UHGV virus genome: UHGV-1465456
Strand: one strand, 5' to 3'
DNA from: a virus
Length of the DNA stretch: 35,465 bases
Of the stretch, positions 1,960-32,917 are shown piece after piece. The translations under genes and the position numbers were made by a program. Below the pieces are notes generated by a model. That model worked only from the letters and a program-made list of their open reading frames with translations. It did not search any database and was not told the DNA's origin. Position 1 is the first letter of the stretch, and each line of letters opens with the position of its first letter.

Positions 1960-1961
1960 TT

Positions 1962-5496: not shown

Positions 5497-5499
5497 GCG

Positions 5500-5940: not shown

Positions 5941-5950
5941 TTATCGCTCC

Positions 5951-7111: not shown

Positions 7112-7114
7112 AGT

Positions 7115-8987: not shown

Positions 8988-9342
8988 CTTTCGCCCCATT
9001 ACCGCCAGTCTGGGCGGCAGCAATCTGCGCTTGCAGGCTGTCGTTCTGCTCTTGCAGCTTGAGCAGCGCTTCTCGCAGATCGGCAATCAACTGATCTTTA
9101 TCGATAATCTGCTTATCTTTGTCGGCAATCTGAGCTTGCAGGCTGTCGATAATGGGTTGCAGATCATCGGTGTCGCTAATCACGCTTTCGGAAAGCTCGG
9201 AGTGCGCCTGGGTGAACCAGTGCGACGCGACCTCTTCCGGTACGTTATGCCGTCCCCGGCCAAACTCCCTTTTTGACTGATCGCCGAGCGTCAGCGTAAA
9301 CGGGGTGTGAACATGGATGGTAGCCAGCTTTTCTTTCGCCAT
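8953..9342 (-). CDS. phage head-associated protein with coiled-coil C-terminus (129 aa)
   Basis: ORF immediately downstream of capsid gene; heptad-like [21 protein letters not shown] segment. Confidence 0.45.
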
Positions 9343-9383
9343 TTTCAGTTCCCTTCTGGCCCCTTTCGGGGCCGTTCTGGTTA

Positions 9384-10325: not shown

Positions 10326-10336
10326 TCGTCTGTTCC

Positions 10337-10840
10337 TTAAATCTTCCAGGAGATTTCTGCATTGCCGTTAGCGTCACCGGCCCCTGTGAATTCGGCGTTG
10401 GTCAGCGCCACGTTTTTGCCACTGACGGACGTGGACATGAAGCCGCCCAGCGGCACTTTGATGGATTCATCAGTGGAGACGACAACGTATACCGGGTCGC
10501 CTTTTTTGATGGTGCTGGCATCAAAATCAGAACCGAGATTAACGGTCATGTAGCCACGCTTCATGGCGTCACCCGGGAAGTTCTTATCCGTCCCCACCTG
10601 GCGAACCATGTCTGGCTGTGATGTGGTCGGATACGGACGAACGTAGATCCCCTTCACCTTGTCGGCGGTGTCACCGTCCGCCAGCGGCACGAAAAAGCCG
10701 TCAGCGTCGTATTTGCCAGCCAGACCATAGGCAGCGAAGGCGTTAGCGGATTTAAGGATCACCGGCTCGACGGTTAAGTCCTGCGGGCGAGAGATAGCCC
10801 CGGCAATGCCAACAGGCATCCGGTACAGATATGCAGTCAT
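10337..10840 (-). CDS. head structural/decoration protein (167 aa), putative
   Basis: Position between scaffold and capsid genes. Confidence 0.4.
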   Translation of the reverse strand: MTAYLYRMPVGIAGAISRPQDLTVEPVILKSANAFAAYGLAGKYDADGFFVPLADGDTADKVKGIYVRPYPTTSQPDMVRQVGTDKNFPGDAMKRGYMTVNLGSDFDASTIKKGDPVYVVVSTDESIKVPLGGFMSTSVSGKNVALTNAEFTGAGDANGNAEISWKI

Positions 10841-10844
10841 TGGA

Positions 10845-12077
10845 TTATCCTTTGCGGTTAGACCAGAAGTCGGCGTTTTGTTTGTTCAGGGAAGCGATGC
10901 TGGTCATGCCCATATTTGGACGTTGTGCATCGCCCGTGGTGCTGCGGGTGTTTCGCCCTTTGGCAATCTCTGACACGGCGTTAAACGCCATATCGACCGA
11001 TTGCTTGGGCAATTTGCGGATATCTGCATCACCGACAACCTGGCGAACCAGTGTTTTGTCAGCGGCAGCCAGCACATCACGTTTGAACGCGGTCGGTTTC
11101 ACCTTACGGCTCAGATCGATACCCGGGACGATAACCTCGGCACGATAGGCAGAGTCACCGGTAATCGTGGTTTCCTCTTCGTCGTCCTCGCCGTCGCCGG
11201 TCGGATCTTTTTTGTCTTTTTCGTCAGGCTTATTGTCGTTATCGCCCGTCGCAGTTCCTTCGAGCTTAGCCAGCAGGGCTTTGAGCAAGGTTTTGATATC
11301 GTCCTCGCCGTCGCCGGTTGGATCTCCGCCCATTTCCGGCTTTTTGTCCGGCAATGGTTGCTGCGGTGAAAGGTTAATGTTGAGGTTAACGCCGCTCGGC
11401 AGATCCCCTTCGTCACCCGTTACCGCCGCTGGCGCAGAGTCCAGCAGTTCGTTCATGGTGTCAGCATCACCCGTTTTGATGGCCGTGCGCATGCGGGTCC
11501 ACCAGCTTTTCTTTTGATTTGCCATTGTGTCTCTGTCTCCAATTGCACAACGATTTCCGGCTCTGCCTTTAGGGACAAGAGCCACATGGTTTCCGGTAAT
11601 ATCGACCTGCTCGGCTTTACCTGGCTCGGTCTGCTCGTACTCCGCGTCATAGCCGCACGACACTTCGCGCAGACCATCTTCGATAAGCTGAATGGCGCTT
11701 TCGTCTTTGACGATAAGGTCTGCCAGCATCAAATCAGACTGGTCACCAGTCCCGCGCCGAACGTTCTGAAGATGCCCGACCGCAAGCTCTTTCCAGTTCT
11801 CGGGGTTGACCAGCCGCACATTTCCGTTTTCATCTTCAGGATGCAGGATCGTGATGCTCATCCCTTCGAATGAGGCGAGCGTGGCCGGATGGAATACCTG
11901 CTCAGGAGAGCGCGTTACGACTATTTCACCGAACTTATCGGGTTTCAGTTTTGGCAGGTCATCAGCACCATAGAGCTGCTTACCTGTTCGTCCTATCGGC
12001 ACGTCTTTGCACAGCAGCGAGCCGTCAGCCAGCTGATAGCGGGTTTCCCCCAGCCGGGTGTAGAAGAAATATTTCAT
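10845..12077 (-). CDS. prohead scaffold/protease-like protein (410 aa, DUF2213-like N-terminus, acidic repeat-containing C-terminal half)
   Basis: Position after portal and Mu-F-like genes; highly acidic region with internal repeat. Confidence 0.5.
   Translation of the reverse strand: MKYFFYTRLGETRYQLADGSLLCKDVPIGRTGKQLYGADDLPKLKPDKFGEIVVTRSPEQVFHPATLASFEGMSITILHPEDENGNVRLVNPENWKELAVGHLQNVRRGTGDQSDLMLADLIVKDESAIQLIEDGLREVSCGYDAEYEQTEPGKAEQVDITGNHVALVPKGRAGNRCAIGDRDTMANQKKSWWTRMRTAIKTGDADTMNELLDSAPAAVTGDEGDLPSGVNLNINLSPQQPLPDKKPEMGGDPTGDGEDDIKTLLKALLAKLEGTATGDNDNKPDEKDKKDPTGDGEDDEEETTITGDSAYRAEVIVPGIDLSRKVKPTAFKRDVLAAADKTLVRQVVGDADIRKLPKQSVDMAFNAVSEIAKGRNTRSTTGDAQRPNMGMTSIASLNKQNADFWSNRKG
11183..11324. 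repeat. two copies of a 25-bp direct repeat within the scaffold gene, encoding DPTGDGEDD peptide repeats
   Basis: tcgtcctcgccgtcgccggtYggatc read at 11183-11207 and 11299-11324. Confidence 0.6.
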
Positions 12078-12274
12078 CCATCCGCCGCCTTAGTGGATTT
12101 AATAAACTCACGCAGCAGATGCTTTATCTGACGCGCATTACCACGACCTATAAGTTGGCAGCGCTTTGCTCTATCACCAACAGATTGATAAATAGCCTCT
12201 ACGCCATTGTATTTAGCAGTGATGCGCGTAGCTTCGCTGGCCTGTTCTTTCAGGAAATAGATTGTTTTTTCCAT
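12074..12274 (-). CDS. small protein (66 aa), unknown
   Basis: ORF with ATGA overlap to downstream scaffold gene. Confidence 0.35.
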   Translation of the reverse strand: MEKTIYFLKEQASEATRITAKYNGVEAIYQSVGDRAKRCQLIGRGNARQIKHLLREFIKSTKAADG

Positions 12275-12288
12275 GGGTTACCTGCAAT

Positions 12289-13062
12289 TCAGGCGAGATA
12301 GGGATGAGGTGTCGGGAATACGATTTCTTTGTAGCAACGGCAGTTAGGTAACTCCCCGGCGTGACCGGTCATGCCGTCAAGCGTTGGAGGTCGGCCCCAT
12401 TCGACAAACTTCCCTTCCATCTCTCGATGAGAATGCCGGACGTCGCCATCTTCGGCTGTACGCCAGATATAACCATTCGAGCCGATTGACAGCGCACGCG
12501 CCTGATCCAGTGCACCGGTTGCGCGCCCAAGCTCAGTCCGGGCGATAAGGTTCGCTCGTGAGCGTGACACGTCACCGGAAGCAGCTATCTCTTTCGCGAA
12601 TGGCTCAGCGCGGCCACCAGTCACAACAGCCTCGATGGCTTTGTTCTGAATGTCATACACCCGATCGGCGGCCTCAAGAGGCAGCGATTTAATGTACTTA
12701 ATTTGCTCGGCAACGATGGATTTCATCACCTGGCCTACCGGGGCGCGGTCAACCATGTTGCGCAGCTCTGCGCTGATGTTCCGGCTGTGCTGACGCCACT
12801 GCTTTTCATTCTGGCGCGCTATGTCTGCGGTGAAGTTCTCAGCAACCTTCGTCGCCCAGGGGGTGATGATTTCGCTGTAGCGCTCCAGCGCATCCATTAT
12901 TTCGGTGACGCTATCGTTTGAACCATCGTAGCGCCCATTTACGATATCCCCGACCGCCCGCGCTATCTGCCGTAGGCTCGTTCGATATCGGATCTCCGCC
13001 TGGCGACTCTGGCGGTTTGTCGCCAAGTTCGCCGATGCCTGGCGGCGCTTCGTCTTCGGCAT
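12289..13062 (-). CDS. head morphogenesis protein (Mu F / SPP1 gp7-like); start may be internal because first Met overlaps portal by 150 nt
   Basis: Position after portal; family recalled from memory; C-terminal Cys motif PNCRCY. Confidence 0.55.
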   Translation of the reverse strand: MPKTKRRQASANLATNRQSRQAEIRYRTSLRQIARAVGDIVNGRYDGSNDSVTEIMDALERYSEIITPWATKVAENFTADIARQNEKQWRQHSRNISAELRNMVDRAPVGQVMKSIVAEQIKYIKSLPLEAADRVYDIQNKAIEAVVTGGRAEPFAKEIAASGDVSRSRANLIARTELGRATGALDQARALSIGSNGYIWRTAEDGDVRHSHREMEGKFVEWGRPPTLDGMTGHAGELPNCRCYKEIVFPTPHPYLA

Positions 13063-14380
13063 TCTCGATATCCTCGTCGGTAATGGATGCCCCGATGCCG
13101 GTGACGTCAGAGTTTTCGCGCAGGTCGGTCATCGCCGCCTTACGCGTCATCAATCCGTCGCCCAGCGCGGTACTGATCGCGTTGGTGGTGTTTACGGCCA
13201 CCGTTGATCGGTCAACGTCTGACATTTGCCATAGCGGGTTAAACTCAAACGTGAAATCGTCCGGCAGCGGCTTTCCGAGTTCCGAGCGGTGCATAATGTC
13301 CAGTATCCGGCGCATCGGCAGCCGTAAGCGGCGCTCCTGCAATGAGCTCACCCGGTCGTAATAGTTGGCGAGGTCTGCATCACCAGTAGAGAAGCCTTTC
13401 GGGGATTGACCGAACAGGCGTACCAGCGGGATACCAACGGCACCGCTGATCTGCTCAGCAAACTGCGAAAGAATGTCATCCAGACCACTAAAGCTGTACT
13501 GGTGGGTTTCGAACTTATCCCGCGAGTCCATGAGCGTCATACCTTCATTGCTCTGGAACTGGCGGATCAGGTCGATGTTCTTCAGCAACGCTTCGAACGC
13601 CGGGCCTCCAAGCGCGATAAGCTCGCGCAACTTCTCCACGCTATAGGTACGCAGATGCGCTTTATAGACCAGCTGCGCCGCGCCGACAGTAGCGCTATCG
13701 AACGCAGTAAGCCGATCCCAGATACGCTCTACAACCGACATTCCCCATTCGTTTTCGGTCATCTTCTGCTGGAATGGCAGCGTGACGCCATCAAAGCGGA
13801 TCAGGCGGCTGTGATGGATGCGCCAGGCCGGAATGCCCGTTGCGGTGGTCACCACGTCGTAAAACTCAGGCTTGCCGAGGTCCGGCCCCATCTCTTTAAT
13901 GCGGCGTGTCAGCACCGGGTTAATCATCCAGCGGTCGAGCGGGAGAATGCCCTTAAACTTGCCCTCGCCAATGGTTTCGAGTCGCAGCGGGGTCATTGGT
14001 GCTTGCCCCTCGATCATGATGAAGCCGACCGCGCCGCCGTAGAGGCGCGACCATTTCAGCACGTCGTTCAGCGCATCCCAGATCTGCAACTCATCCAGTT
14101 GCGCTTCGAGGGTGCCACGGTCTTTGGCGTCAATCTCCGAAGTGATGCGAATGCCCTTTCGGGTCATATCGTCCGGGATAGCGTCGACCGCTTCACCGAT
14201 AACCCACGAACCGCGATATGACCATTCCACCAGCATGCGGTTGCGGCTGGTGGAGTTCGCCCGGTAGGTCGATGCTGAATGCTGGTTAGGCGTCTGCATC
14301 CCAACACGGGCGACGAAGTTCTCGTAGCCGTCAGCGGTGGGCTGTGCCGTTCGCTGAGAGGATTGCTTGTTTCGTGCCAT
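12911..14380 (-). CDS. portal protein (489 aa)
   Basis: Size and position immediately downstream of large terminase, start overlaps terminase stop. Confidence 0.7.
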   Translation of the reverse strand: MARNKQSSQRTAQPTADGYENFVARVGMQTPNQHSASTYRANSTSRNRMLVEWSYRGSWVIGEAVDAIPDDMTRKGIRITSEIDAKDRGTLEAQLDELQIWDALNDVLKWSRLYGGAVGFIMIEGQAPMTPLRLETIGEGKFKGILPLDRWMINPVLTRRIKEMGPDLGKPEFYDVVTTATGIPAWRIHHSRLIRFDGVTLPFQQKMTENEWGMSVVERIWDRLTAFDSATVGAAQLVYKAHLRTYSVEKLRELIALGGPAFEALLKNIDLIRQFQSNEGMTLMDSRDKFETHQYSFSGLDDILSQFAEQISGAVGIPLVRLFGQSPKGFSTGDADLANYYDRVSSLQERRLRLPMRRILDIMHRSELGKPLPDDFTFEFNPLWQMSDVDRSTVAVNTTNAISTALGDGLMTRKAAMTDLRENSDVTGIGASITDEDIENAEDEAPPGIGELGDKPPESPGGDPISNEPTADSAGGRGYRKWALRWFKR

Positions 14381-16008
14381 CAGGCCTGTCTCCCTAGCAG
14401 CTCCCAGATGTTCAGGGCTGAATTCATTGGCGCGTAGCTGATCATCACCGAGTCGGCGAGGTTCGGCGACTTGGTGCCATCAGGCTGTTTATCAACAACG
14501 ATTTTCCCCACGCCATTAATGGAGTAGGTCGGCTGCGACAGCTCGATGATGAGTTTGTCTTTGCTCGCCATGGCGCTGCTGATTGAGATGATTTCGTCCG
14601 GGTTGTAGGCCATGCCCTCAACCACGGCGCGATAGGTGTTCTGGAAAAGCTTGCGTAAATGCCACCAGCTCTGGGCCTTGGCGTTGGCGAAGAAGTCCTT
14701 GTTCAGGCGTGCGGCCTGTCCGTTGTCCCCGCGCACCGCTTCATCGTCCGGATCAAATACCGCGCCGCTACCACGAAACGGTGTGGCGAGTATTGACGGT
14801 CGGCGCGCAGCGTTACGCAGTTCGTTGATGGCGCGTGCATCGCCGCGAACGCCAGCGCCCAGGCCGTCCTCGTCGAAGCGAAATTCTTCGAGGTTGTCCT
14901 GTTCGCAAAAGCCGAAGACCTTCTCAACGGACTGGTAAATGTCGCTGCCCACGCCGGACCATTCACGCACGTTCTCCAGAAGGAAGCCGTGACGGGTCGA
15001 AAAGGCATTTTTGTCCCGGCCTTCGTCGGCGACGTCCATCGCGCCCAGTCGCTTGCCCGTTGGCTGAATACCAAGTTTGATATGCGCGTCGACGGCAGCC
15101 TGTACCCAGTCGGACGGGATCAGGACGCCTTCCGCAGATGCGCTGTAGTTCAGGTCAAGTTCCTGCGCCACCACCACCGGATTGTCGATTTTCTCGCACT
15201 CCCTGCGATACCACTCTTCATCCTTGCGAGGATCATCCCGCCAGTGGAATGTGAATACCGGTATCTTCCCGCCGTGACGCTTCTGCGCGAACGGGTTCGC
15301 CATGCCATTAACCGAGCTCAGGTCAATACGGCAACGGGTGGTTTGCGACAGCGCCGCATCAATCAACAGAGGACGCTGGAGGAATGCAGCTTCATCCACC
15401 AGGTAGAGCGTGGTACGGTCACCACGACCGATATTGTCGCCAGCCTCGCCTTTGATGACCGCGCCAGTATCGGGAAACTCAACGCGCATATACGGCGCAT
15501 GCTTCTTCTCGTCCCACGAACCACGAAACTCGATGGGCAGTGTTTCCACGAACTTTCGCGCCTTCCAGAACAGCGCCTTCGGGTCACCGGTGCTGTCGAC
15601 GTATTCCTCTTTACGGGAGCCGAAACCGATAACCATTTCTTTGTTGAAGAGACAAAGCGAGCAGGCCAGCCCGATCGCGGTCCAACTGAGCCCCATTTCG
15701 CGGCTCTTTTCGGTGATGCCGTTCTCCAGTCGTTCGCGCCGCTCCATGATCCAGTGAATCCACTCTTCCTGTTTCGGGAACAGCAGAAAAGGGATGGTGA
15801 CCGGCAGGCCATAATCGATGTTACGCGGGTCAGTAGTCATACCCCAGTCGATGATGAACTGTGCCGGGTTGGTGCGATAAAACTGCTTTAGCGCTGGCAG
15901 CATTTCAGGGTTCTGGCGAATGCGCTGTAAGCGCTCCATCCGCCATTCAAAAACCATCTGGTAATCAGGGTTTCTGAAATCGAATTCAAACGGGAGAGGC
16001 ATGATCAC
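14380..16008 (-). CDS. terminase large subunit (542 aa)
   Basis: Size, position, Walker-B-like LYLVDEAAF motif and C-terminal nuclease-like region. Confidence 0.8.
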
Positions 16009-16478
16009 CCCATCATCTTGCGGTAAATCTCTGCGGCCTGATCTGCGGTGAGGTTGGTCGTCTCGGTCTTGATCGGGCCGCCATCCTTGCCAGTGCTCTC
16101 AACCTTCAGCTTATTGGTGTAAGCGTCGCCAACCTCTTTCGCGGCCTGTTCGATAAGCTGCGCCGTCAGGGAGAAGTTTTTCATCCCCTCGGTTTTGGTT
16201 GCCATGCGGTCAAGCACGCGGAGGCGATAGGATTTGTTCGCTATCGGAATGTCGCTGGTTTCGGTCAGGAACCGTTCGCGCGTCGCGTGGAACATCTCGA
16301 TCCACTTTTTGGCGAGCGTCTTACCGCTGGCCTTCGTGGGGTCGTGAGATTCAGCCTGCTGGCGGGTGATCCTGATCCCGAATTCTTTTTGGACAGCCTC
16401 GACCACCTGCGATGGCGTGTCATAGCACGCAAGCGACTGAATGATGAAGGCTTTCACATCAGGTTTTAATGCAGCCAT
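16005..16478 (-). CDS. terminase small subunit (157 aa, DUF2280-like), putative
   Basis: Position directly upstream of and overlapping large terminase. Confidence 0.55.
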
Positions 16479-16509
16479 AAATCACCATTCGTCTTATACA
16501 GTCCAGTAT

Positions 16510-17166
16510 TTAAGCCAGTCGCAGCATGCACGTCCCGCACGCTCTGGCAATATCGAGATGAGCAACCTCCGCTGGCTGATTCGCCGCATCAATCATTTCC
16601 TGCACGTCCCGGCTCGCACCGTAACGGCGAACCACGCCCACAAACTCTTCCACGTCATGGCCGCGCAGCTTCAGCTTTGGCTGCCCTTCCTGCGTGAACT
16701 TCGGCGCACCAAATTCATCTGTCGCTTGGCAGATGTGATAAAGCTCGTGCTCTATCAGCGCGCAGAATTCCAGATCGGAACATTGCGAGCAGTAATCGGC
16801 GGCCAGCGTGATGATGAACTGCGGCACCCTGCCGAACCATTCATACATCTGCTGCTCCATCCGCGCTTTCTGCCAGCCTCCGGCCCGCATTGCCACTTCT
16901 TCCGCCTGCCCCAGCACGGAACGCCCTTTCTTCTCGAAAGCGTTCGATGCCCAGAGAAAGCACAGATCCGCTTCAAGCAAATGCTGGTGGTCATGGTTGT
17001 AGAGGTCACCCTCATCGCTCAGGATGTGCTGATTCAGCCACTCGCCAACGTCATTAGCGGGCATAATGCTGATGTACGGCTTCGGGTCAGGTGGCATCGT
17101 AAAATGCGCTGGTGGGTGTGGTCTGTTCATGAATAATTCCAGTGCTCCATTATCGAAGCCCCTCAA
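16510..17166 (-). CDS. HExxH motif protein, putative zinc metallopeptidase of unknown role (218 aa)
   Basis: Motif IEHELYH read in translation; no confident family assignment. Confidence 0.45.
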   Translation of the reverse strand: MRGFDNGALELFMNRPHPPAHFTMPPDPKPYISIMPANDVGEWLNQHILSDEGDLYNHDHQHLLEADLCFLWASNAFEKKGRSVLGQAEEVAMRAGGWQKARMEQQMYEWFGRVPQFIITLAADYCSQCSDLEFCALIEHELYHICQATDEFGAPKFTQEGQPKLKLRGHDVEEFVGVVRRYGASRDVQEMIDAANQPAEVAHLDIARACGTCMLRLA

Positions 17167-17190
17167 TGAAGGGCTTCTGTAATGCCGCGA

Positions 17191-17715
17191 TCAGCCAATA
17201 AGTAATTCCGGCTGCGTTACCTGCATGATGTGCTCATGTTCGAGCTCCAGGACGCGCTTCTCTTTCTTCCGCTCGTTCATCAAACGGCTTCCGAACGTGC
17301 CTTTCAGCTTTGAGCGCGTTTCTTTGATGGCGTAGCGATGCTGCAATTCTTCACCCATCGCCATGCGCCGGTTTAGCTGCTCTGCCATCCAGTTGAATGC
17401 TGCGATATAGCTCTCCTTGATTGCCGCAGCAGCTTTCCCGGTGAACCCCATCACAACCATGATCCAGCCATCTTTCGTCAGGCTGTACATCGGGCGAACC
17501 TTGCCCTGCTCATCGATATAATCAGCCGACGCAAAATTGCGTTGGCTAAACTCACGCGAGCAATCAGCCTTAACCTGCTCGATTTTCCTGAGAACATCAC
17601 CGTGTCGCTTGCCGAAGTACTTGGCAATTTTTCTGGATGTGGTAACGACCTCTCCGTTTTTGGCTTGCACCATTTCTCGGAAGTCGAAGGATGGAATAAC
17701 TGAATGATTATTCAT
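17191..17715 (-). CDS. phage regulatory protein Rha family (174 aa)
   Basis: Recalled Rha-family similarity; position between lysis and terminase as in P22. Confidence 0.6.
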   Translation of the reverse strand: MNNHSVIPSFDFREMVQAKNGEVVTTSRKIAKYFGKRHGDVLRKIEQVKADCSREFSQRNFASADYIDEQGKVRPMYSLTKDGWIMVVMGFTGKAAAAIKESYIAAFNWMAEQLNRRMAMGEELQHRYAIKETRSKLKGTFGSRLMNERKKEKRVLELEHEHIMQVTQPELLIG

Positions 17716-17729
17716 AGCGTCTTTACCTT

Positions 17730-18281
17730 TTAGAAAGTGAGCCTGTCTCTGGTTCCGTGATTTTTGTGATATTGCAACTGCATCTCGGCAGCCTTTCTTG
17801 CTTTCACCGCTTCACGGAAATCATCGAAGTAACCAATATGCTTCACCTTCCCAGAGACGTTTATCTTTGCTCTCCACTTTCCCCGCGCTTTATACCAACC
17901 TACTCCTGGGATACCGGTTTTATTTGTGGAGTAAAGGCGCAAATTTTTGCTATTGGCTGCCGAAGTTACTGATCGCAAGTTGTCTATGCGGTTATCACTC
18001 CTATCGCCTGAAATGTGATCAATCTCATTATCAGGCCAGTAGCCGTAATGTAACGCCCAGGCTACACGATGAGATCTATATAACCGGCCGCATATCCCGA
18101 TACGCAAATATCCATCGCTATCACGTGCGCCTGCTACTTTTCCAGCAAAATTAGCATTGGTCGCCCGCCAAGAATTTTCGGTCTTAAAATGAATTTTTGG
18201 TCGCTGCTTCCAACGGATAACACCAGTATCTGGTGCGTATTCCAGTGCTTCTTTCAGATATTCGATAGAAATATCATTCAT
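17730..18281 (-). CDS. HNH endonuclease with AP2-like DNA-binding domain (183 aa)
   Basis: HNH-like DHISGDRSDNRIDNL motif and AP2-like GVGWYKARGKWRAKI...GYFDDFREAVKARKAAE segment. Confidence 0.7.
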   Translation of the reverse strand: MNDISIEYLKEALEYAPDTGVIRWKQRPKIHFKTENSWRATNANFAGKVAGARDSDGYLRIGICGRLYRSHRVAWALHYGYWPDNEIDHISGDRSDNRIDNLRSVTSAANSKNLRLYSTNKTGIPGVGWYKARGKWRAKINVSGKVKHIGYFDDFREAVKARKAAEMQLQYHKNHGTRDRLTF

Positions 18282-18424
18282 CGGATTTACCTTTTAGTGA
18301 TGAACCTTGTCTCACAGGAAATCCGGCCCTCAGATGCTCCGACAGCCAGCCGGTATCCTCAAGGGTCATCCTGAAAGGTTCTGAGTGGTAATATGCGCGT
18401 GAGATGCGCTGTGAAATTCAGATG

Positions 18425-18450
18425 TAAAAAAGCCCCGCATCGCGAGGCTC
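18425..18450 (-). terminator. rho-independent terminator candidate after lysis cassette
   Basis: Imperfect GC hairpin followed by T6 on minus strand. Confidence 0.4.
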
Positions 18451-18481
18451 ATTAAATGGACTTTGTGATTTGCAAAAAAAA

Positions 18482-18949
18482 TTATTTCAGGCATTGCGTC
18501 CTGATGTACTCCTGCAGGTAGTTAACCTGCGCGGTTATCTTGTCGATTCCACTTCGGAGACGGTAATAATTGAGTTCAGCATCTGCTGTAAGTCTTGGGC
18601 TTTCTCCATCGCCCATGCCGCTGGCTCCGGTCGTTGACTTTGCACAGGTGGCGGCGACTTGCAGCCGCTTACGGCCAGCAATGACATCGCTATGCAGACG
18701 CTCAATGGTTTCTTTCGCATCAGCCAGTTCTCCGGTGTATTTGGCATCCAGTGCAGCGACATCACGCTGGCGGGTCTGCATGTCTTTAATGGTGGCGGTC
18801 GCCAGGAGGAGTTTCTCAGTGGCCTTATCGCGCTGGTCTCTGTAAGTGATGGCGTTGTCGCGGTAGTGGTTCACGAAGAAAGCCAGTGCGCCGATTAACG
18901 CCAGCACCAGCAACTGCAGCCAGTAACGCTTAACCAGTGCGCTAATCAT
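18482..18949 (-). CDS. Rz: i-spanin Rz
   Basis: Strong recalled similarity to lambda Rz ([11 protein letters not shown]...[13 protein letters not shown]); N-terminal TM segment. Confidence 0.85.
18535..18720 (-). CDS. Rz1: o-spanin Rz1 lipoprotein embedded in Rz in +1 frame (start at MRKKPLSV)
   Basis: Embedded ORF with lipobox LLAVSGC and Pro-rich mature part. Confidence 0.7.
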
Positions 18950-19395
18950 GACAGGAACAGAGCTCGCTCTGCCTTGCGGCGATTCGTGAGCCCCGGCATC
19001 ACCTTTCCGCCTGATTTATTCCAGCGCAGAAATTCATCTGCCGCGCCTTTTATATCGCCAGCATTCAGCTTTTTCAGCAGTGTAGATGTGGAAAGAGCAC
19101 GCGACCCAACGTTGTAAGCGAACGACACCAGTGCGTCGAACTGGCCTTGTGTCAGCTTCACCCTGACAACTTTCAGCACGTCATTCTCATAACCAACAAG
19201 CCCTGTTTTCAGAAGCCTGTCAGCGGTTTGCTGGTCGATAGTCATACCGCGCTTTACTGGCTTTCCGTCAACCGGATGGGTCCAGCCATAGCCGATGGTC
19301 CACGGCGCATCTCCCGTTCCGGGGTCGGGGTAAGCAGTCAGCCGACAACCTTCAAATTTTTTTATCAGAGCAATTCCGTCAGGACTGGTTTGCAT
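18946..19395 (-). CDS. phage lysozyme (T4/P22 gp19-type endolysin); start at internal Met MQTSPDG of ORF 18946..19467
   Basis: Recalled similarity to P22 gp19-type lysozymes (C-terminal [11 protein letters not shown]); position between holin and Rz. Confidence 0.8.
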
Positions 19396-19702
19396 CGTCA
19401 ACTCCCGCCTTTTTTGCTGCAAGTTTTTTAATAAGATTGCCGATCGAATCGGTGCCGATGTATCCAATAAAGACGCTGGCTATGTAGGCGAGGTTGCTGC
19501 TCAGGCCGATAAAGTCCAGAAGGTCACGAACGAACCAGGCAATCATCGCGCACATCAGCGCATCAATTAGCGTTTTTGTTACCGCGCCGCCGTTATAGCG
19601 ACCACGCAGATACGCCATGATAAAAGCCAGCATTGCACCAATACCCTGCTCCTTGGCGGCAAGTAGCGCAGCGATGAAATCTTGTTTGTATGGCATTTTC
19701 AT
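19379..19702 (-). CDS. S: class I holin, lambda S-like, with dual-start MKM motif
   Basis: Near-identity to recalled lambda S sequence (MKMP...AAKEQGIGA...LRGRYNGGA...); start chosen at MKM inside ORF 19379..19780. Confidence 0.85.
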
Positions 19703-19810
19703 AGGCCTCACCTCCGATTTTTCGGATGGCGCTGTGTGTGTATGAAAAGGATCAGGCTTCACTGGCTGGATTTTCAACAAAGCACGTAGTGATTGATTCC
19801 CGTGAGCCTG

Positions 19811-26696: not shown

Positions 26697-27344
26697 ATGA
26701 AAACTATGCATGAAATTATCGGCGAGAGGATAAAGTCCCTTCGCGAAGCTAAAGGACTCAGCCAAGCAAAGTTAGCCAACCTTTGCGGCTGGGGTGCGCC
26801 TTCACGACTGGGGAATTATGAGCTTGGCACGCGAAAAGTTAGCGCTGATGATGCGTTAACGCTTGCTGAGGTTCTTAAGGTGTCTCCTTCGCTTATTCTT
26901 TTTGGCGAAGACAATGGGCCAGTATTCCAGAAATTTGAGTACCCGGTTTTCTCGCATGTACAAGCTGGTATGTTCTCACCTGAATTTCGCACATTCACCG
27001 AACGTGATGCAGAGAGATGGGTAAGCACGACAAAGAAAGCCAGCGACAATGCATTCTGGCTTGAGGTTGAAGGCCATTCCATGACGGCTCCTGCTGGTTC
27101 AAAGCCTAGCTTCCCTGAAGGAATGCTAATTCTTGTAGATCCAGATGAACCGGTTGACCCTGGTGATTTCTGTATCGCCAGATTAGGTGGCGATGAATTC
27201 ACGTTTAAGAAACTGATCAAGGACAGCGGGCAGATATTTCTCCAGCCATTGAATCCTCAATTCCCCATGATGCCGTGTAATGAGCACTGTCGGGTTGTTG
27301 GTAAGGTTGTTGCGTCACAGTGGCCTGAAGAGACGTTTGGGTGA
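26697..27344 (+). CDS. cI: CI repressor: non-lambda HTH N-terminus with lambda-like LexA/S24-type C-terminal domain (start may be second ATG at 26706)
   Basis: C-terminal half nearly identical to recalled lambda CI ([13 protein letters not shown]...[16 protein letters not shown]...[15 protein letters not shown]). Confidence 0.85.
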
Positions 27345-27437
27345 TAAGAGAATATCTGATAGTAGGCGTGGTTACTTTGCTCTCGGTTGTTGCGATCGTG
27401 CTTATGGTGGCCTGATGAGACGTTTGGGTGATGAGAG
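27321..27437. repeat. 30-bp direct repeat (2 mismatches) duplicating the 3-prime end of cI, copies at 27321-27350 and 27408-27437
   Basis: TGGCCTGA[A/T]GAGACGTTTGGGTGAT[A/G]AGAG read twice, first copy containing the cI stop codon. Confidence 0.7.
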
Positions 27438-27507
27438 GTCAAGCTCTAATGGCTTGCGATAATCAACGGACAATTTTTCTAATTTATATTAAAATAAGGG
27501 ATGTTCA

Positions 27508-28350
27508 ATGAGTAAGTTTGGGTGTGATATGAGTAGGCAAATTACCGTTTTCGATGACGCATCACAGTTAACATTTGATGATTTCGCCAGGGAGAATGGT
27601 GTTACCTATTGGTTCGCATCTGATCTGGCGATGATGCTTGGGTATAATGGTATGGACCAGATACTAAAAGCCATCAACAAGGCAACGTCTGTATGCGTTA
27701 ACCTTGATATCCCCGTCTACGACAACTTCATTCAGATGCCTTCTGAGAATGCGCAAAATGACTTTAAATTAACTCGATTTGCTTGCTATTTAACTGTAAT
27801 GAATGGCGATATTAGCAATCAGAAAGTTGCAAATGCTCAGGCATACTTTGCTGGTCTGGCAGCAGAAATTCAAGCGGCGTATCATAACCATGATGCAGTT
27901 AACCGAGTTTATTTGCGTGGTGAAATCACTTCAAGAGAAAAGACTCTTAGCCACGTGGCACATAAGCATGGCGTAGTAGACTATGGTCTTTTTCAAAATG
28001 CAGGATATCGCGGGATGTACAACATGAATCTCACGCAATTGAAAGCCCGCAAAGGACTAACTAAAAAAGATGGAACAATGCTTGATTTTATGGGCAGCGA
28101 AGAACTTGCTGCTAACATTTTCCGAATAACACAAACAGAAGCAAGAATAAGAAACCAGAATCTTAAGGGGCAGGTGCAACTTGAAAATGCCGCTGAAACA
28201 GTTGGAAGATCTGTTAGAAATGTAATGATTGCCAACACAGGAACGGCACCTGAGAGTATTAAGTTGTCTCAAGATAAAATTCAAAAAGTTAGAAGCAGTA
28301 TCAAGAAAACACACAAAGCACTAGTAAAGCACGATAAGAAGAAGCCTTAA
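27508..28350 (+). CDS. DinD-like protein (DNA-damage-inducible protein D family, Bro-N-like N-terminus), 280 aa, in the rexAB-equivalent slot
   Basis: Recalled similarity to E. coli DinD (RFACYLTVMNGD; FMGSEELAANIFRITQTEARIRN); RBS AAGGGA; same strand as cI. Confidence 0.6.
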   Translation: MSKFGCDMSRQITVFDDASQLTFDDFARENGVTYWFASDLAMMLGYNGMDQILKAINKATSVCVNLDIPVYDNFIQMPSENAQNDFKLTRFACYLTVMNGDISNQKVANAQAYFAGLAAEIQAAYHNHDAVNRVYLRGEITSREKTLSHVAHKHGVVDYGLFQNAGYRGMYNMNLTQLKARKGLTKKDGTMLDFMGSEELAANIFRITQTEARIRNQNLKGQVQLENAAETVGRSVRNVMIANTGTAPESIKLSQDKIQKVRSSIKKTHKALVKHDKKKP

Positions 28351-28356
28351 TAGTGA

Positions 28357-28379
28357 CCCGGCCATCGCGCCGGGTTTTT
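28357..28379 (+). terminator. rho-independent terminator ending the cI/DinD-like transcription unit
   Basis: Hairpin CCCGGC-CATCGC-GCCGGG followed by TTTTT. Confidence 0.7.
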
Positions 28380-28602
28380 ACTGTCCTTTCCTCACGAACT
28401 CCGCAGCATCCCTCAGCAATCCCTTGTGAATAACATTACCCACCGCCCTCCTCTTGGTCTCCAAGCTATCCACAATCGCATCCCTATTAATCACCACCCC
28501 GCCGATAATCAACTCAACAACCGCGCCGCCAATCTCGCCAGCGATGAAAGCTGCGCGGTCTTCCAGCAGTTCATCCCTACCCATATCCATTCCCAGCCCC
28601 AT
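28378..28602 (-). CDS. possible small hydrophobic protein (74 aa) antisense between terminator and oL; doubtful
   Basis: ORF with plausible composition and hydrophobic segment, but strong strand compositional skew and an overlapping plus-strand ORF make the call uncertain. Confidence 0.25.
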   Translation of the reverse strand: MGLGMDMGRDELLEDRAAFIAGEIGGAVVELIIGGVVINRDAIVDSLETKRRAVGNVIHKGLLRDAAEFVRKGQ

Positions 28603-28669
28603 AACAATGCCCTCTTTGATGTTTTTCTGAGCATATCACGTTTTTTTGAAATTATTTACCCCACTAAAA

Positions 28670-28745
28670 ACATACACATATCGTGTGATAAATAAATTAT
28701 ACACATATCGTGATTGACATTTAAATCACAATGCGTGAATATTGC
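28670..28745. promoter_or_regulatory. oL/pL region: operator-like inverted repeats and pL (-35 TTGACA 28714-28719, -10 near 28737-28742)
   Basis: CAC-N5-GTG type sites at 28675-28687, 28702-28712, 28726-28738; downstream transcript start resembles lambda pL leader (ATCAGCAGGACGCAC). Confidence 0.6.
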
Positions 28746-28782
28746 TCCATCAGCAGGACGCACTACTCACCAGGACGGTGAA

Positions 28783-28812
28783 GCTCTTAAAAATCTGGCG
28801 CTGAAAAAGCGC
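28783..28812 (+). promoter_or_regulatory. nutL: boxA-like GCTCTTAAAAA and boxB-like hairpin GCGCTGAAAAAGCGC
   Basis: Motifs read in pL leader upstream of N, matching the lambda nut arrangement. Confidence 0.65.
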
Positions 28813-29080
28813 AGCATTCAAAGCAGAAGGCTTTGGGGTGTGGTGAAGCCAGCTAGTCACTGGCAAGTGCTTACCTACTGTTGAGCGGTGAAGAGCTCCC
28901 AACGCTAGCAATAGCGTGGACGAGATGGGGAGCCGCGGGCGATAAGGCCGCCATAACGCGCACGTTGTCGCATGGAAAAATCGCTGGGGTGCCGGTTATA
29001 CCCCTCCGAATGAGACTCAACAAGCTGGAGCTAGACTACCAGCCACCACACCACCAAAGCTAACTGACAGGAGAATCCAG

Positions 29081-29407
29081 ATGGATGCACAAACACGCCG
29101 CCGCGAACGTCGCGCAGAGAAACAGGCTCAATGGAAATCAGCAAATCCCCTGTTGGTTGGGGTAAGCGCAAAACCAGTTAACCGCCCTATTCTCTCGCTG
29201 AATCGCAAACCGAAATCACGAGTAGAAAGCGCACTGAATCCGATAGACCTTACGGTACTGGCTGAATACCACGAACAGATTGAAAGCAACCTGCAACGTA
29301 TTGAGCGCAAGAATCAGCGCACATGGTACAGCAAGCCACGCAGTGAAATGGGTGTGACTTGTGTTGGTCGCCAGAAAATGAAATTAGGCAGCAAACCACT
29401 TATTTGA
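29081..29407 (+). CDS. N: antitermination protein N
   Basis: Near-identity to recalled lambda N (MDAQTRRRERRAEKQAQWK...). Confidence 0.9.
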   Translation: MDAQTRRRERRAEKQAQWKSANPLLVGVSAKPVNRPILSLNRKPKSRVESALNPIDLTVLAEYHEQIESNLQRIERKNQRTWYSKPRSEMGVTCVGRQKMKLGSKPLI

Positions 29408-29415
29408 GGTGAGAT

Positions 29416-29859
29416 ATGAGTACTAATGGATGGTATTACCTGCATAAAAATGGTGATCTTATTTATAAGCCATCACCAGATGCAATTATTGATATTCGTG
29501 ATTCTGATTTAGCGGTTTGCTCATGGCCATTAGATGTTAGCAGCCGTAAAACTGCATGGGACATTCTGGTTGAGTCCATGGCTCTTGGTGCCAACAAAGA
29601 GCGCGTTAATGAGCTGGCTAGCAAATGGAATTGCAATGATGATGACGCTGATAAATATGCAGAGGTCGTTGGCGTGACAATCGAGTTAGATGGAAACGCT
29701 TGGTGTGCACACGCTCATAATTTTGTTGATTTACAGGAATCTCCTGCTGGATTCGGCAATACCAAGCTTGAGGCGATGGCTTCTCTTGCTGAGCAACTTG
29801 GTTTATCAGGCGGCCACATGTGGAGAAGTTCATTTTCTGATTTGGTTAAGGCCGCATAG
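29416..29859 (+). CDS. hypothetical protein (147 aa) directly downstream of N
   Basis: ORF with short spacing after N; stop codon lies in loop of a terminator hairpin. Confidence 0.5.
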   Translation: MSTNGWYYLHKNGDLIYKPSPDAIIDIRDSDLAVCSWPLDVSSRKTAWDILVESMALGANKERVNELASKWNCNDDDADKYAEVVGVTIELDGNAWCAHAHNFVDLQESPAGFGNTKLEAMASLAEQLGLSGGHMWRSSFSDLVKAA

Positions 29860-29876
29860 TCGGCCTTTATTTTTGG
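29848..29876 (+). terminator. rho-independent terminator (tL1-like)
   Basis: Hairpin AAGGCCG-CATAGT-CGGCCTT followed by TATTTTT. Confidence 0.6.
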
Positions 29877-29898
29877 CATAAATACACAGAGGTGAATA

Positions 29899-30150
29899 AT
29901 GACAGTAGGAAGAATGAAAAGGCCATGGAATGTTGTTGGCGCTGGATTTAACGATGATGGGGTTTATTTCACGTTTGACGATACAACCATCCATCGAGGT
30001 GATGTGAGATTGATGGAGGCAGCTCCTGATTTGCTCGAAGCTCTGCAAGCGATGCTAAACAAGGCATACAAGCAAAACTGGGATGACCATTATCCTGATG
30101 AAGTATCGAAAGCACTGTCAGCAATCAGCAAAGCCATTGGAGATGAGTAA
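29899..30150 (+). CDS. hypothetical protein (83 aa)
   Basis: ORF with RBS-like GAGG upstream. Confidence 0.45.
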   Translation: MTVGRMKRPWNVVGAGFNDDGVYFTFDDTTIHRGDVRLMEAAPDLLEALQAMLNKAYKQNWDDHYPDEVSKALSAISKAIGDE

Positions 30151-30153
30151 TAT

Positions 30154-30624
30154 ATGACAAAATCATGGAGCGTACCTTTTCCTGAATCAGAAACTGAACA
30201 TGAGGGAATGCCTGTTTTCTGGAGATTCCAGGCGACAGTTGAAGAAGATGGAATCAAAATATTCGCACTTCAATATATAGCTTTTCATCAGACAGAGCAT
30301 TATGCATGGTTGGTTCCTGCGCATTGGATTGTTAATTTTAAACCAGCACCAAATCAGTGGTTACAGGAATGGAAACAAAAGAGAAATAGATATGCAATTA
30401 AGAAAGTAGCAAAAAATGCAGAAAGATCTTTTGCATTCCCAACGAAGAAACTTGCCATTGAAAGTTTATTGCGCCGGAAGAAATACCATTTAATGAGAAT
30501 CAAACAAGATTTGGCTGTTGTATCAACTCTTGTTGATGGGATGAAGAATATTGATACATCAACACCAGATATTGAATATAACTTTGGACACAACCAAGAA
30601 ACAGAAAACTGGGTGTTTTATTAG
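30154..30624 (+). CDS. hypothetical protein (156 aa), AT-rich moron-like gene
   Basis: ORF 4 nt after previous gene; lower GC than neighbours. Confidence 0.5.
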   Translation: MTKSWSVPFPESETEHEGMPVFWRFQATVEEDGIKIFALQYIAFHQTEHYAWLVPAHWIVNFKPAPNQWLQEWKQKRNRYAIKKVAKNAERSFAFPTKKLAIESLLRRKKYHLMRIKQDLAVVSTLVDGMKNIDTSTPDIEYNFGHNQETENWVFY

Positions 30625-30728
30625 TACGAATAAGCACTGTGTATTCATTCCAACGAGTGAATACACGGAGCAATGTCGCTCGTAACTAAACAGGAGCCGA
30701 CTTGTTCTGATTATTGGAAATCTTCTTT

Positions 30729-30752
30729 GCCCTCCGATGTGAGGGATTTTTT
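30729..30752 (+). terminator. rho-independent terminator upstream of cIII-like gene (tL-like)
   Basis: Hairpin CCCTC-CGATGTG-GAGGG followed by ATTTTTT. Confidence 0.6.
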
Positions 30753-30818
30753 ATATTCATACCAATAACGCTTCACTTGAGGCGTTTTCGTTATGCAATC
30801 AAACAGAAGGAGCATCCT

Positions 30819-30989
30819 ATGCAACAGTTCGCTATTGCAGGGGCGGCATCGGTTCGCCCTTTCAACCCGATTTTATCGGTGCAGCATTCACGAAAAAATA
30901 TTTTAACCGGAGCAGACTTTAAACAACCTCGCGTTAAGAGCTTGCTGGATCGTCTTGTTGAGTTTCTGAATCAAAAGGTACAGCCATGA
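30819..30989 (+). CDS. CIII-like small protein (56 aa), start at internal Met of ORF 30714..30989
   Basis: Strong RBS AAGGAG before ATG at 30819; loose resemblance to the CIII central region; lambdoid position. Confidence 0.45.
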   Translation: MQQFAIAGAASVRPFNPILSVQHSRKNILTGADFKQPRVKSLLDRLVEFLNQKVQP

Positions 30990-31150
30990 AAAAACCAACT
31001 TACGAGGAACTGGAAGAAGCCCTGAAAGAGCTTAGAAGAATGGCTTTCGCCCGACGCACTAACTCTCACAACTGCGGCCCATTTCAGTACTCGGATTTAT
31101 GCGAGGACATCATTGAGGTAACTCAACTGATTAAGGTCGTTAAGCAATGA
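30986..31150 (+). CDS. small protein (54 aa), unknown (Kil-like position)
   Basis: Manual translation MKKPTYEELEEALKELRR...; ATGA overlap with upstream stop; below 60-aa cutoff. Confidence 0.4.
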   Translation: MKKPTYEELEEALKELRRMAFARRTNSHNCGPFQYSDLCEDIIEVTQLIKVVKQ

Positions 31151-31231
31151 GCATTACGGATACATGGTCAGACGAAGAATTCATTCGTCAGATGAAAGAA
31201 ATGCTCAATCAGCACAAAGAACAGGAGAAAG

Positions 31232-31543
31232 ATGATGATTCTGACTCTGAATGATAAGCGTGAAATATCGCAAATCATCGCAAGTTTTACTGATGAAGAT
31301 TACGAACGAATCAACAGTGAAGTTGATCGCCTCTGCAAACGTTGCGACCCAATAAGCGAAATGCTTCGCTCATATAAGCCAGATGAACACACTAAGGACG
31401 CTATCGACTGGCTGGAAGATGATGACTGTGACTATCAGGAAAAAGCCGCTGAATGGTTCTGGGATGCAATAACCGAAAGAGTTAAGGCTGAATATGCCTT
31501 CGCAATATTCAAACGCAGACACATTTTTGGAGAAGCAGCATGA
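31232..31543 (+). CDS. hypothetical acidic protein (103 aa) upstream of RecT
   Basis: ORF with ATGA overlap into RecT start. Confidence 0.5.
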   Translation: MMILTLNDKREISQIIASFTDEDYERINSEVDRLCKRCDPISEMLRSYKPDEHTKDAIDWLEDDDCDYQEKAAEWFWDAITERVKAEYAFAIFKRRHIFGEAA

Positions 31544-32451
31544 GCAATATCGTTGAATTCGTTAAACAGCAAGAGCAGTTATTCTGCGGAGCATTGACTG
31601 AACAGACGGTGACATGGGCTAAGGAAAGCCAGTTTGCAATTCAGTATTTCCAAAAAAACGATTACCTGGCTAAAACGGCACTGGCAAATCCAACCAGCGC
31701 ACAGAACGCCATCATCAATGTTGCGGCGATCGGCATCACCTTAAACCCGGCCAGCAAACTGGCTTATCTGGTTCCGCGCGACGGCATGGTTTGCCTTGAT
31801 ATCAGTTATATGGGATTGCTCCATATTGCAATGGAGTCTGGTGTTATCTCATGGGGTCAGGCAAAACTTGTTCATGCTAACGATACCTATGAGTTAAACG
31901 GTCTTGATAAAGCACCAACCCATAAATACAACGCCTTCGGTGATCGTGGTGATATCGTTGGCGTTTACTGCACAGTTAAGACGCCAGCAGGTGATTATCT
32001 AACGGAAGAGATGAGTCTGGCTGAAATTGAGGCTGTAAGGAAAACAAGCAAGGCAGCATTCAGCGATAAAGGACCATGGGTAAATCACTGGAATGAGATG
32101 GCGCGAAAGACGGTCGTAAAGCGTGCAAGCAAGTATTGGCCTAAGGCATCACGTCTTGATAGTGCTATTCACGTACTAAACGAAGAAGAAGGTGTGTGGA
32201 CTGAACCAGTTATGCCGCACAAATCAGAGGAAGATATCCGCGAAGATGAACGGAAACGCCAGCAGGAAATAATGGATAAAGCACAATTTCTTTGTGATGA
32301 AATGGCTCAGGCAGAAAACATGGATGATTTGAAGCGATATTTTGCAGAAGCATATCGCCTGACATCTGGAATGAAATTGCAGCAGAACGTACAAGCCATT
32401 TACATAGAATGCAAAGCGAAACTGGAGGTTGCCAGTGAGCAAACTGTATGA
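31540..32451 (+). CDS. recT: RecT-family single-strand annealing recombinase (303 aa)
   Basis: Recalled RecT-family resemblance; position in pL operon recombination module. Confidence 0.65.
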   Translation: MSNIVEFVKQQEQLFCGALTEQTVTWAKESQFAIQYFQKNDYLAKTALANPTSAQNAIINVAAIGITLNPASKLAYLVPRDGMVCLDISYMGLLHIAMESGVISWGQAKLVHANDTYELNGLDKAPTHKYNAFGDRGDIVGVYCTVKTPAGDYLTEEMSLAEIEAVRKTSKAAFSDKGPWVNHWNEMARKTVVKRASKYWPKASRLDSAIHVLNEEEGVWTEPVMPHKSEEDIREDERKRQQEIMDKAQFLCDEMAQAENMDDLKRYFAEAYRLTSGMKLQQNVQAIYIECKAKLEVASEQTV

Positions 32452-32917
32452 AATAGCCAATGAATACGCAAAGCTGATGGATTCAGATTTAGAGCCAGAG
32501 ATGATTGCTGACACAATAGAAGGCATGGAAGGAGAATTTACCGATAAAATAGAGCAACTTCTTTCCGTCATTAAAAATGAATCTGGTTATGCTGAACGCC
32601 TCAAGGAAGAGGCAAAGTCACTGAATGAGCGAGCCGCAGTAATCCAAAATAAGATTGACAGCATCAAATCATATATAGCGTCATCGCTTGAAATGGTTGG
32701 CAAGAAAAATATTCGAGCAGGTATTCACCAGGTAACAATCCGCAAACCGTCAGAAATTGTAGAAATAATCGACTCAAGCGTCCTTCCTCCTGAATACGTT
32801 GAGTTTGAAACGACAATTAAAGCCGACAAACTGGCAATCAAACACCAACTAAAAGCAGGAATAAATATTCCCGGTGCTCAACTCAAGGTTGGGAAACCTT
32901 CACTTCTTATCAAATAA
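32435..32917 (+). CDS. Gp157-like protein (about 160 aa), GTG start after GGAGG
   Basis: Recalled resemblance to siphovirus Gp157 family often adjacent to recT/erf. Confidence 0.45.
   Translation: MSKLYEIANEYAKLMDSDLEPEMIADTIEGMEGEFTDKIEQLLSVIKNESGYAERLKEEAKSLNERAAVIQNKIDSIKSYIASSLEMVGKKNIRAGIHQVTIRKPSEIVEIIDSSVLPPEYVEFETTIKADKLAIKHQLKAGINIPGAQLKVGKPSLLIK

Follow-up and report, generated by a model that had tools for sequence, protein, structure and literature searches.

Three unrelated single-gene cassettes, one encoding a conserved orphan protein, in a two-slot region between N and cIII of a lambdoid phage genome

Results

A mosaic hotspot between N and cIII with one conserved orphan

We analyzed the interval between the antiterminator gene N and cIII (positions 29416-30752) in UHGV virus genome UHGV-1465456, a 35,465-nucleotide stretch of DNA referred to here as the window, which carries three open reading frames (ORF1, ORF2 and ORF3) for proteins of 147, 83 and 156 aa. 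The window is a lambdoid phage or prophage whose early-left (pL) operon reads on the plus strand. It has long been known that lambdoid phages exchange accessory genes between N and cIII, and unknown genes are expected there; the region is an ordinary mosaic hotspot, with the layout usual for lambda-like phages, that holds one interesting orphan, ORF1. What we add is a map of the site, which comprises two slots split by conserved non-coding joints and holds three single-gene cassettes that are exchanged independently of one another.

The coordinates and lengths of ORF1-3 are exactly those given by an earlier annotation made from the letters of the window alone (the sequence-only reading). Each ORF is preceded by a good Shine-Dalgarno sequence, and full-length homologues were found across many taxa for ORF1 (213), ORF2 (188) and ORF3 (33). 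Since such homologues occur in many genomes, we regard ORF1-3 as real genes and not as chance ORFs. The features of the early-left operon are as follows.

26697-27344: cI-type repressor (Peptidase_S24 and HTH)
28714-28743, plus strand: pL-like promoter amid operator-like repeats (TTGACA, 18-nt spacer, AATATT; consensus scan 10/12)
28783-28789, plus strand: boxA of nutL, GCTCTTA, aligned to the annotated nutL of CL707
28798-28812, plus strand: boxB hairpin of nutL, GCGCTGAAAAAGCGC, aligned to the annotated nutL of CL707
29081-29407, plus strand: antiterminator N, 108 aa (PF11438 N36, E = 5.7e-26; phrog_271)
29416-29859, plus strand: ORF1, 147 aa, in the slot held by ral or Nmad5 in other phages
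29848-29876, plus strand: intrinsic terminator on the ORF1 stop codon (7-bp stem 29848-29867 and T-run)
29899-30150, plus strand: ORF2, 83 aa (phrog_1273 / PF27050)
30154-30624, plus strand: ORF3, 156 aa (phrog_1636)
30637-30668, plus strand: hairpin of 14 pairs, just upstream of and overlapping the predicted 5' end of a small RNA (sRNA)
30665-30752, plus strand: homologue of the lambda sRNA LPR1/PreS, ~88 nt, ending at terminator tL2a
30767-30794, plus strand: second distal intrinsic terminator, as in the lambda ea10-cIII spacer (z = -4.0)
30819-30989, plus strand: cIII, 56 aa (phrog_550 'CIII anti-termination', E = 5.9e-19)

Conserved joints divide the ral position into two slots

Ral is the restriction-alleviation protein of lambda, and the sequence-only reading had equated the interval with the ral region. 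Comparison with other phages upheld this: N and nutL lie on the left, homology to the ral-ea10 spacer lies on the right (30634-30754 is 95-97% identical to that spacer in lambda and phage 21), and the terminator after the slot gene is shared. Operon, strand and the N and nutL flank are the same in the ral regions of lambda, phage 21 and Sf101, and the window and lambda have in common, at 95-97% identity, the hairpin/PreS/tL2a element and the cIII-proximal terminator. The window differs from the lambda region in that ral is replaced by the unrelated ORF1, the space from the terminator to the PreS hairpin is taken up by two additional genes, ORF2 and ORF3, and ea10/ssb is absent.

The terminator after ORF1 (AAGGCCGCATAGTCGGCCTTTATTTTTGGCATAAA) is kept regardless of the gene that precedes it. 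When it was aligned in five other phages or prophages, and in a separate comparison with phage 21, it followed ORF1 in the window, E. coli EC187792, CL707 and phiv205-1, an Nmad5-family gene in ST131 prophages, and ral in Sf101 and phage 21. The same terminator leads straight into the hairpin element in phage 21, CL707 and phiv205-1, and in HK97 an identical joint formed by the end of N and a ribosome-binding site (ttatttgaggtgagatATG) is followed directly by gp45, the counterpart of ORF3. Because the terminator is conserved after different genes and runs straight into the hairpin in some phages, the interval is built of two slots: slot A, from N to the terminator, holds ral, Nmad5 or ORF1, and slot B, from the terminator to the hairpin, is empty in some phages and holds ORF2 and ORF3 here and in ST131 prophages.

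No homology to Ral, a protein of ~66 aa, was detected with hhalign, which gave a probability of 3.6% for the ORF1 profile and 0.2% for the ORF2 profile against Sf101 Ral, and no sequence similarity was found between ORF1 and Nmad5 or between ORF3 and Ea10. Nmad5 was also considered as a proven anti-defence gene and rejected as such, being a putative DNA-modification protein where Tmn-escape mutations arise and not an anti-Tmn factor.

ORF1, ORF2 and ORF3 are exchanged independently

We determined the distribution of the three genes in 5,426 complete E. coli genomes. ORF1 was present in 10, mostly avian and human isolates; ORF2 was present at full length in 35, with partial matches in 103; and ORF3 was present in 593 (~11%), with up to four matching places per genome. 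Each of the genes occurs without the others, and the trio was found together in no genome or phage record searched. As shown by these differing counts and the lack of any record with the trio, ORF1-3 are three unrelated, independently exchangeable single-gene cassettes and not one system.

The same distribution bears on the idea that ORF2, small and acidic, and ORF3, larger and basic, form a type II toxin-antitoxin pair. The pattern of size and charge and the spacing of 3 nt would fit such a pair, and the two genes are kept together in ST131 prophages. However, ORF3 occurs without ORF2 in HK97, in 933W and in most of the 593 genomes, full-length ORF2 being limited to 35; ORF2 occurs without ORF3 in Sf101 and EC187792; and neither protein matches a toxin-antitoxin family. 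We therefore consider a toxin-antitoxin pair very improbable.

ORF1 and ORF2-type genes are also found near each other elsewhere. In a Burkholderiaceae metagenome contig (L008, 2234-3505), from a distant lineage, an ORF1 homologue and a PF27050 member are two genes apart, and ORF1 is adjacent to an ORF2-type gene in E. coli EC187792 as well. Of the ~9 contexts examined, 3 showed such adjacency, and it may reflect no more than the two genes happening to be placed together in early operons. A conserved trio of ORF1, a middle gene and a PF27050 gene was considered for the Burkholderiaceae contig and rejected, as the middle gene is unrelated to ORF3; the PF27050 member of this contig had no BLASTP similarity to ORF2 that we could detect.

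ORF1 is predicted to be immediate-early and ORF2 and ORF3 delayed-early

A scan for intrinsic terminators found 6 terminator-like sites, compared with 2.9 +/- 1.6 in shuffled sequences, and on the plus strand between pL and cIII only those starting at 29848, 30730 and 30767. Two of these had been seen by the sequence-only reading, and both were borne out: the site at 29848-29876 has a 7-bp stem (29848-29867) followed by a T-run, and that at 30729-30752 has a stem (30730-30745) followed by T6. The terminator at 30767-30786 had been overlooked, and the description of the trio as bracketed by terminators was wrong, since the stop codon of ORF1 lies within the first terminator, which leaves ORF2 and ORF3 as the only genes with a terminator on either side. 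We detected no promoter belonging to any of ORF1-3, the promoter-like sites numbering 3 where 5.7 were expected by chance. A promoter-like site at 29873-29900 has a -10 element that overlaps the ORF2 start codon, and this site is not conserved in CL707 or phiv205-1.

The operon has the hallmarks of N/nut control, namely an N protein with an arginine-rich motif and a boxA and boxB downstream of pL, and the position of the pL-like promoter (28714-28743) matches the annotated pL/oL of CL707. Read from the DNA, pL, nutL, N and ORF1 form a unit without interruption, with 9 nt between N and ORF1; ORF2 and ORF3 are separated by 3 nt. It had been proposed that expression of all three genes depends on N antitermination. 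This does not suit ORF1, which follows N by 9 nt with no terminator before it, and is plausible for ORF2 and ORF3, which lie behind an intrinsic terminator. Since no terminator separates N from ORF1, ORF1 should be an immediate-early, N-independent product made together with N, and since an intrinsic terminator stands ahead of ORF2 and ORF3, these would be read only by N-modified polymerase. Transcription starting at pL would thus pass nutL and N and give ORF1 as an immediate-early product, would need N-modified polymerase to reach ORF2 and ORF3 as delayed-early genes beyond the terminator, and would then enter the PreS/LPR1 sRNA, with its end at tL2a, the second terminator and cIII.

ORF1-3 are all soluble (maximum mean hydropathy over 19 residues on the Kyte-Doolittle scale <=0.68), and Kyte-Doolittle analysis in 19-residue windows found no membrane segment of the SieB type in any of them. 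We infer that all three are soluble, cytoplasmic proteins of the lytic phase.

The boxB stem shows compensatory changes relative to lambda (GCGCT...AGCGC here, GCCCT...AGGGC in lambda), its loop reads GAAAA here and GAAGA in the nutL of CL707 (lambda-immunity), and N keeps the lambda-type arginine-rich motif.

ORF1 is a conserved orphan and a candidate counter-defence protein

Searches with each of ORF1-3 against Pfam, PHROGs, PADLOC and NCBIfam returned PHROG 1273 and 1636 as their only informative matches, and searches of PDB by sequence, with single proteins and with profiles, gave nothing. The view of the sequence-only reading that the three proteins match nothing is thus right for characterized families and needs correction for ORF2 and ORF3, which belong to catalogued uncharacterized families (PF27050; PHROG 1273 and 1636). 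The homology searches and structure prediction that it had put forward leave ORF1 an orphan with a confident model and no fold match, place ORF2 and ORF3 in the catalogued families, and give for ORF3 a model with a predicted local distance difference test score (pLDDT) of 66.6.

ORF1 is an acidic (isoelectric point, pI, 4.6), soluble protein of 147 aa. Searches of Pfam, PHROGs, PADLOC, NCBIfam and the PDB sequences gave it no significant match; neither the family alignment nor the isolated C-terminal domain matched anything in Pfam, and its homologues have no precomputed Pfam family. The 213 homologues are 54-92% identical to ORF1, those at 54-61% coming from Xanthomonas phages, a Pseudoxanthomonas prophage, a Burkholderiaceae contig and the Negativicute Anaeroselena. 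The family has 24 invariant residues, including H10, a D26-I27-R28-x-S30 motif, R44, E53, R63, D77 and many Trp and Tyr residues. The AlphaFold2 model is confident (pLDDT 91.9) and gave no fold match and no solved or viral structural relative. The C-terminus resembles the fold of HicB-type antitoxin N-domains and double-stranded-RNA-binding domains, a resemblance and not a membership, with no link at the sequence level, and the N-terminal two-thirds of ORF1 have no counterpart in that fold. ORF1 is thus a genuinely orphan, highly conserved early protein, of a family that is rare in E. coli.

We next considered the genes around ORF1 homologues. Among 40 IMG/VR loci, same-strand genes upstream encoded N peptides (9) and repressors with HTH_3 (9) or Peptidase_S24 (5) domains, and same-strand genes downstream encoded RecT (7), ERF (4), SSB (4) and YqaJ (4) proteins. 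Single cases of Tad6, Tad2-like, Nmad5 and DNA methylase genes were scattered nearby, and in the Pseudoxanthomonas prophage a Gad2 gene adjoins the ORF1 homologue.

Because the other occupants of the slot are Ral (restriction alleviation) and Nmad5 (predicted nucleotide modification), and because anti-defence genes lie nearby, we propose that ORF1-3 may act in counter-defence or host takeover, most likely by binding host or defence components. This functional reading, which rests on position and not on homology, seems to us about evenly balanced between right and wrong. Within it, our best guess is that ORF1 is the gene most apt to play a Ral-like early counter-defence role. Further, and more doubtfully, ORF1 could found a new phage counter-defence family with an unseen fold, made at once on infection together with N; if so, its conservation at >50% identity from enterobacterial to Xanthomonas, Burkholderiaceae and Negativicute prophages would imply that it neutralizes a host component which is itself conserved and found very widely, either a nuclease of a defence system or a nucleotide used in signalling.

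Several observations weigh against a role of these genes in counter-defence. The anti-defence genes near ORF1 homologues are singletons, and recombination genes are commoner neighbours. A search of 72,556 plasmids gave no ORF1 homologue, whereas general anti-restriction genes, ardA for one, also occur on plasmids. The model of ORF3 is of low quality (pLDDT 66.6). Finally, the predicted timing of expression is read from the sequence, by scans for intrinsic terminators and consensus-like promoters.

The recombination genes raise the alternative that the genes serve the phage's own development, ORF1 as a recombination accessory (for example an inhibitor of RecBCD or another nuclease) and ORF3 as a DNA-binding or regulatory protein. 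ORF1 homologues lie almost always just upstream of RecT, ERF, YqaJ or SSB genes, the window has no recognizable gam or abc2 and only RecT and Sipho_Gp157, ORF3 is basic with a long helix, and a distant ORF3 relative is flanked by a Cro-like HTH gene and Rha in a Vibrio phage. However, no homology to Gam, Abc2 or any DNA-binding family was found, ORF3 co-occurs with abc2 in HK97 and the ST131 prophage, and nearby recombination genes are the normal order of an early-left operon. On balance we hold a developmental role to be somewhat unlikely and keep a contribution to counter-defence or host takeover as the preferred reading. As an unusually conserved, structurally orphan and putatively immediate-early protein, ORF1 is a cheap, well-defined candidate for anti-defence screening.

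ORF2 and ORF3 belong to catalogued uncharacterized families

ORF2 is an acidic protein (83 aa, pI 4.8) that matched phrog_1273 (E = 4.4e-17). Its assignment to PF27050 (Phage_P22_Y8K6) rests on the precomputed annotation of its homologues, some of them 99% identical, which carried this assignment in all 120 matches listed. PF27050 is an uncharacterized family, and a literature search for PF27050/Y8K6 found nothing. The conserved core of ORF2 consists of G-x-W, D-x-x-L-(I/M)-x-A-A-P-D-L-L-E-A-L and A-A-I-S-K-A-L-G-E, and the G-x-W, AAPDLLEAL and AAISKALGE motifs are common to the PF27050 homologues. The N-terminal half of ORF2 is one of several interchangeable versions, making the gene an intragenic mosaic; in variants of 93 and 109 aa, similarity to ORF2 is confined to the C-terminal ~55 residues (76-85% identity), and the N-terminal halves are unrelated. 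ORF2 relatives are also found in virulent phages.

ORF3 (156 aa) is basic, with a pI of 9.05. The sequence-only reading had remarked on its AT-richness, and the figures agree: its GC content is 36.3%, and 29% at third codon positions, compared with 43.7-44.4% for ORF1 and ORF2 and 50.2% for the window. It matched phrog_1636 over its full length (E = 1.5e-111, residues 1-156 on profile positions 1-156 of 156). PHROG 1636 is the uncharacterized family of HK97 gp45, which gives ORF3 a name and no function, and a literature search for HK97 gp45 and the protein accessions found nothing. HK97 gp45 is 98% identical to ORF3, and further homologues are present in 933W, H-19B, BP-4795, Min27 and Stx2 phage 86 (orf57). 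As a group, HK97 gp45 and the post-N genes of Stx phages share 97-99% protein identity with ORF3, the same N-to-cIII interval and the same spacer next to it. They differ in placement, gp45 in HK97 lying directly after N and ahead of any terminator, whereas ORF3 in the window lies behind a terminator and ORF2.

Among 1.8 billion cluster representatives, a profile search identified 88 ORF3-related proteins, mostly distant ones of ~140 aa, which have in common a long helix and two motifs, E-T and S-R-F-A-F-x-T-K-x-x-A. An extended alignment of these relatives gave no Pfam family. The two relatives whose context was examined both lie among phage genes, one of them that of the Vibrio phage described above. 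Against the defence models of PADLOC-DB 2.0, ORF1 and ORF2 had no match and ORF3 no significant one, its only hit being a sub-threshold match to Cas1_II (E = 0.0096, 13 bits).

These data also bear on another explanation, in which at least one of the genes, especially the AT-rich ORF3, is a moron expressed from the prophage that protects the lysogen by superinfection exclusion or abortive defence, as does lambda sieB. The composition of ORF3 (36% GC in a 50% window), its frequency among prophages of E. coli (593 of 5,426 genomes), Stx phages among them, and the presence of sieB in this neighbourhood in lambda are all in keeping with it. By contrast, no promoter of its own was detected for ORF3, which lies on the pL strand and is tightly packed, 3 nt after ORF2 here and on the ribosome-binding-site joint of N in HK97; the terminators downstream belong to the PreS element, and Dewey, lambda and phage 21 carry this element but lack ORF3; ORF3 has neither a membrane segment nor a significant PADLOC match (the 13-bit Cas1_II hit only); and its distant relatives lie in early lytic operons. 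A lysogen-protecting moron is accordingly a distinctly unlikely explanation, and for ORF3 too we favour a part in counter-defence or host takeover. As ORF3 is present in ~11% of complete E. coli genomes, Shiga-toxin phages included, a function established for it would be of wide relevance.

The distal hairpin and terminator form a putative PreS/LPR1 sRNA locus

Downstream of ORF3, 30637-30650 pairs with 30655-30668 in a stem of 14 pairs, including two G-U pairs, around a perfect 9-bp core (30639-30647 / 30658-30666). The hairpin folds with a free energy of -24 kcal/mol (z = -5.3), and none of 200 shuffled sequences was as stable. The sequence-only reading, which had reported a perfect 9-bp stem at 30645-30672, was right about the hairpin and its core, but it placed the structure a few bases too far to the right and did not give its full 14 pairs. 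The hairpin is invariant in HK97, the ST131 prophage and Dewey and differs by one base in phage 21.

LPR1/PreS is an Hfq-dependent sRNA of lambda located 'between ea10 and ral', with its 3' end at terminator tL2a and bands of ~88 and ~68 nt; in lambda it was shown to be made in the lytic cycle only and to raise translation of host dnaN, and it was found in >2,500 genomes (10.1101/2024.10.31.621285; 2024 preprint). Judged by homology, 30665-30752 is the counterpart of LPR1/PreS in the window, ending at tL2a. Its 3' end corresponds to the U-tract at 30752, a GC-rich hairpin followed by U6, and from the published size its 5' end would lie near 30665, within the 3' arm of the 14-bp hairpin. The 88-nt stretch folds as a 5' stem-loop, an A/U-rich single-stranded linker and a terminator hairpin (z = -3.0). 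The 14-bp hairpin, which overlaps the predicted 5' end, is a possible site of sRNA processing. A search of 27000-32000 against Rfam gave no family, and PreS was recognized by way of lambda homology and the literature.

A query comprising the genes and the element matched 2,235 of the 5,426 E. coli genomes, compared with 593 for ORF3 alone, and Dewey, lambda and phage 21 have the element but no ORF3. Because the PreS element is far more widespread than ORF3 and occurs without it, the gene cassette does not include the distal hairpin and terminator; the distal terminator flagged previously is the end of an already described sRNA locus. In the window, which lacks ea10/ssb, tL2a and the cIII-proximal terminator are only ~20 nt apart.

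Neighbouring genes and origin of the window

The structural and late genes (944-19744) are 96% identical to those of Citrobacter phage Omnitron and ~86% identical to those of a group of E. coli myoviruses, and the early region is a patchwork of HK97, Stx-phage, CL707 and lambda segments. Because the late genes are Omnitron-like and the early region is such a patchwork, the host genus is uncertain.

A Bro-N protein of 280 aa is encoded directly downstream of cI (27508-28350, plus strand), followed by a strong terminator (28355-28376), in a slot that holds rexAB in lambda and bstA in BTP1. It matched the PADLOC candidate defence family PDC-S13 (E = 6e-85), and its phage relatives are annotated 'DNA-damage-inducible protein D' (DinD). 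Its identification as BstA was not supported, its relatives being DinD and BTP1 BstA not being among the matches. This protein is a better candidate for a prophage-expressed defence than ORF1-3. Between the immunity terminator and oL/pL lies a 74-aa ORF (28378-28602, minus strand), in a stretch with a GC skew of -0.47, and a small gene on the minus strand is annotated at the corresponding position of phage Dewey.

Downstream of cIII (30986-31543 and 31540-32917, plus strand) there is no recognizable kil, gam or abc2. This part of the operon carries a 54-aa ORF (phrog_32687), an acidic 35-aa ORF and a 103-aa ORF (phrog_3486), followed by RecT and Sipho_Gp157.

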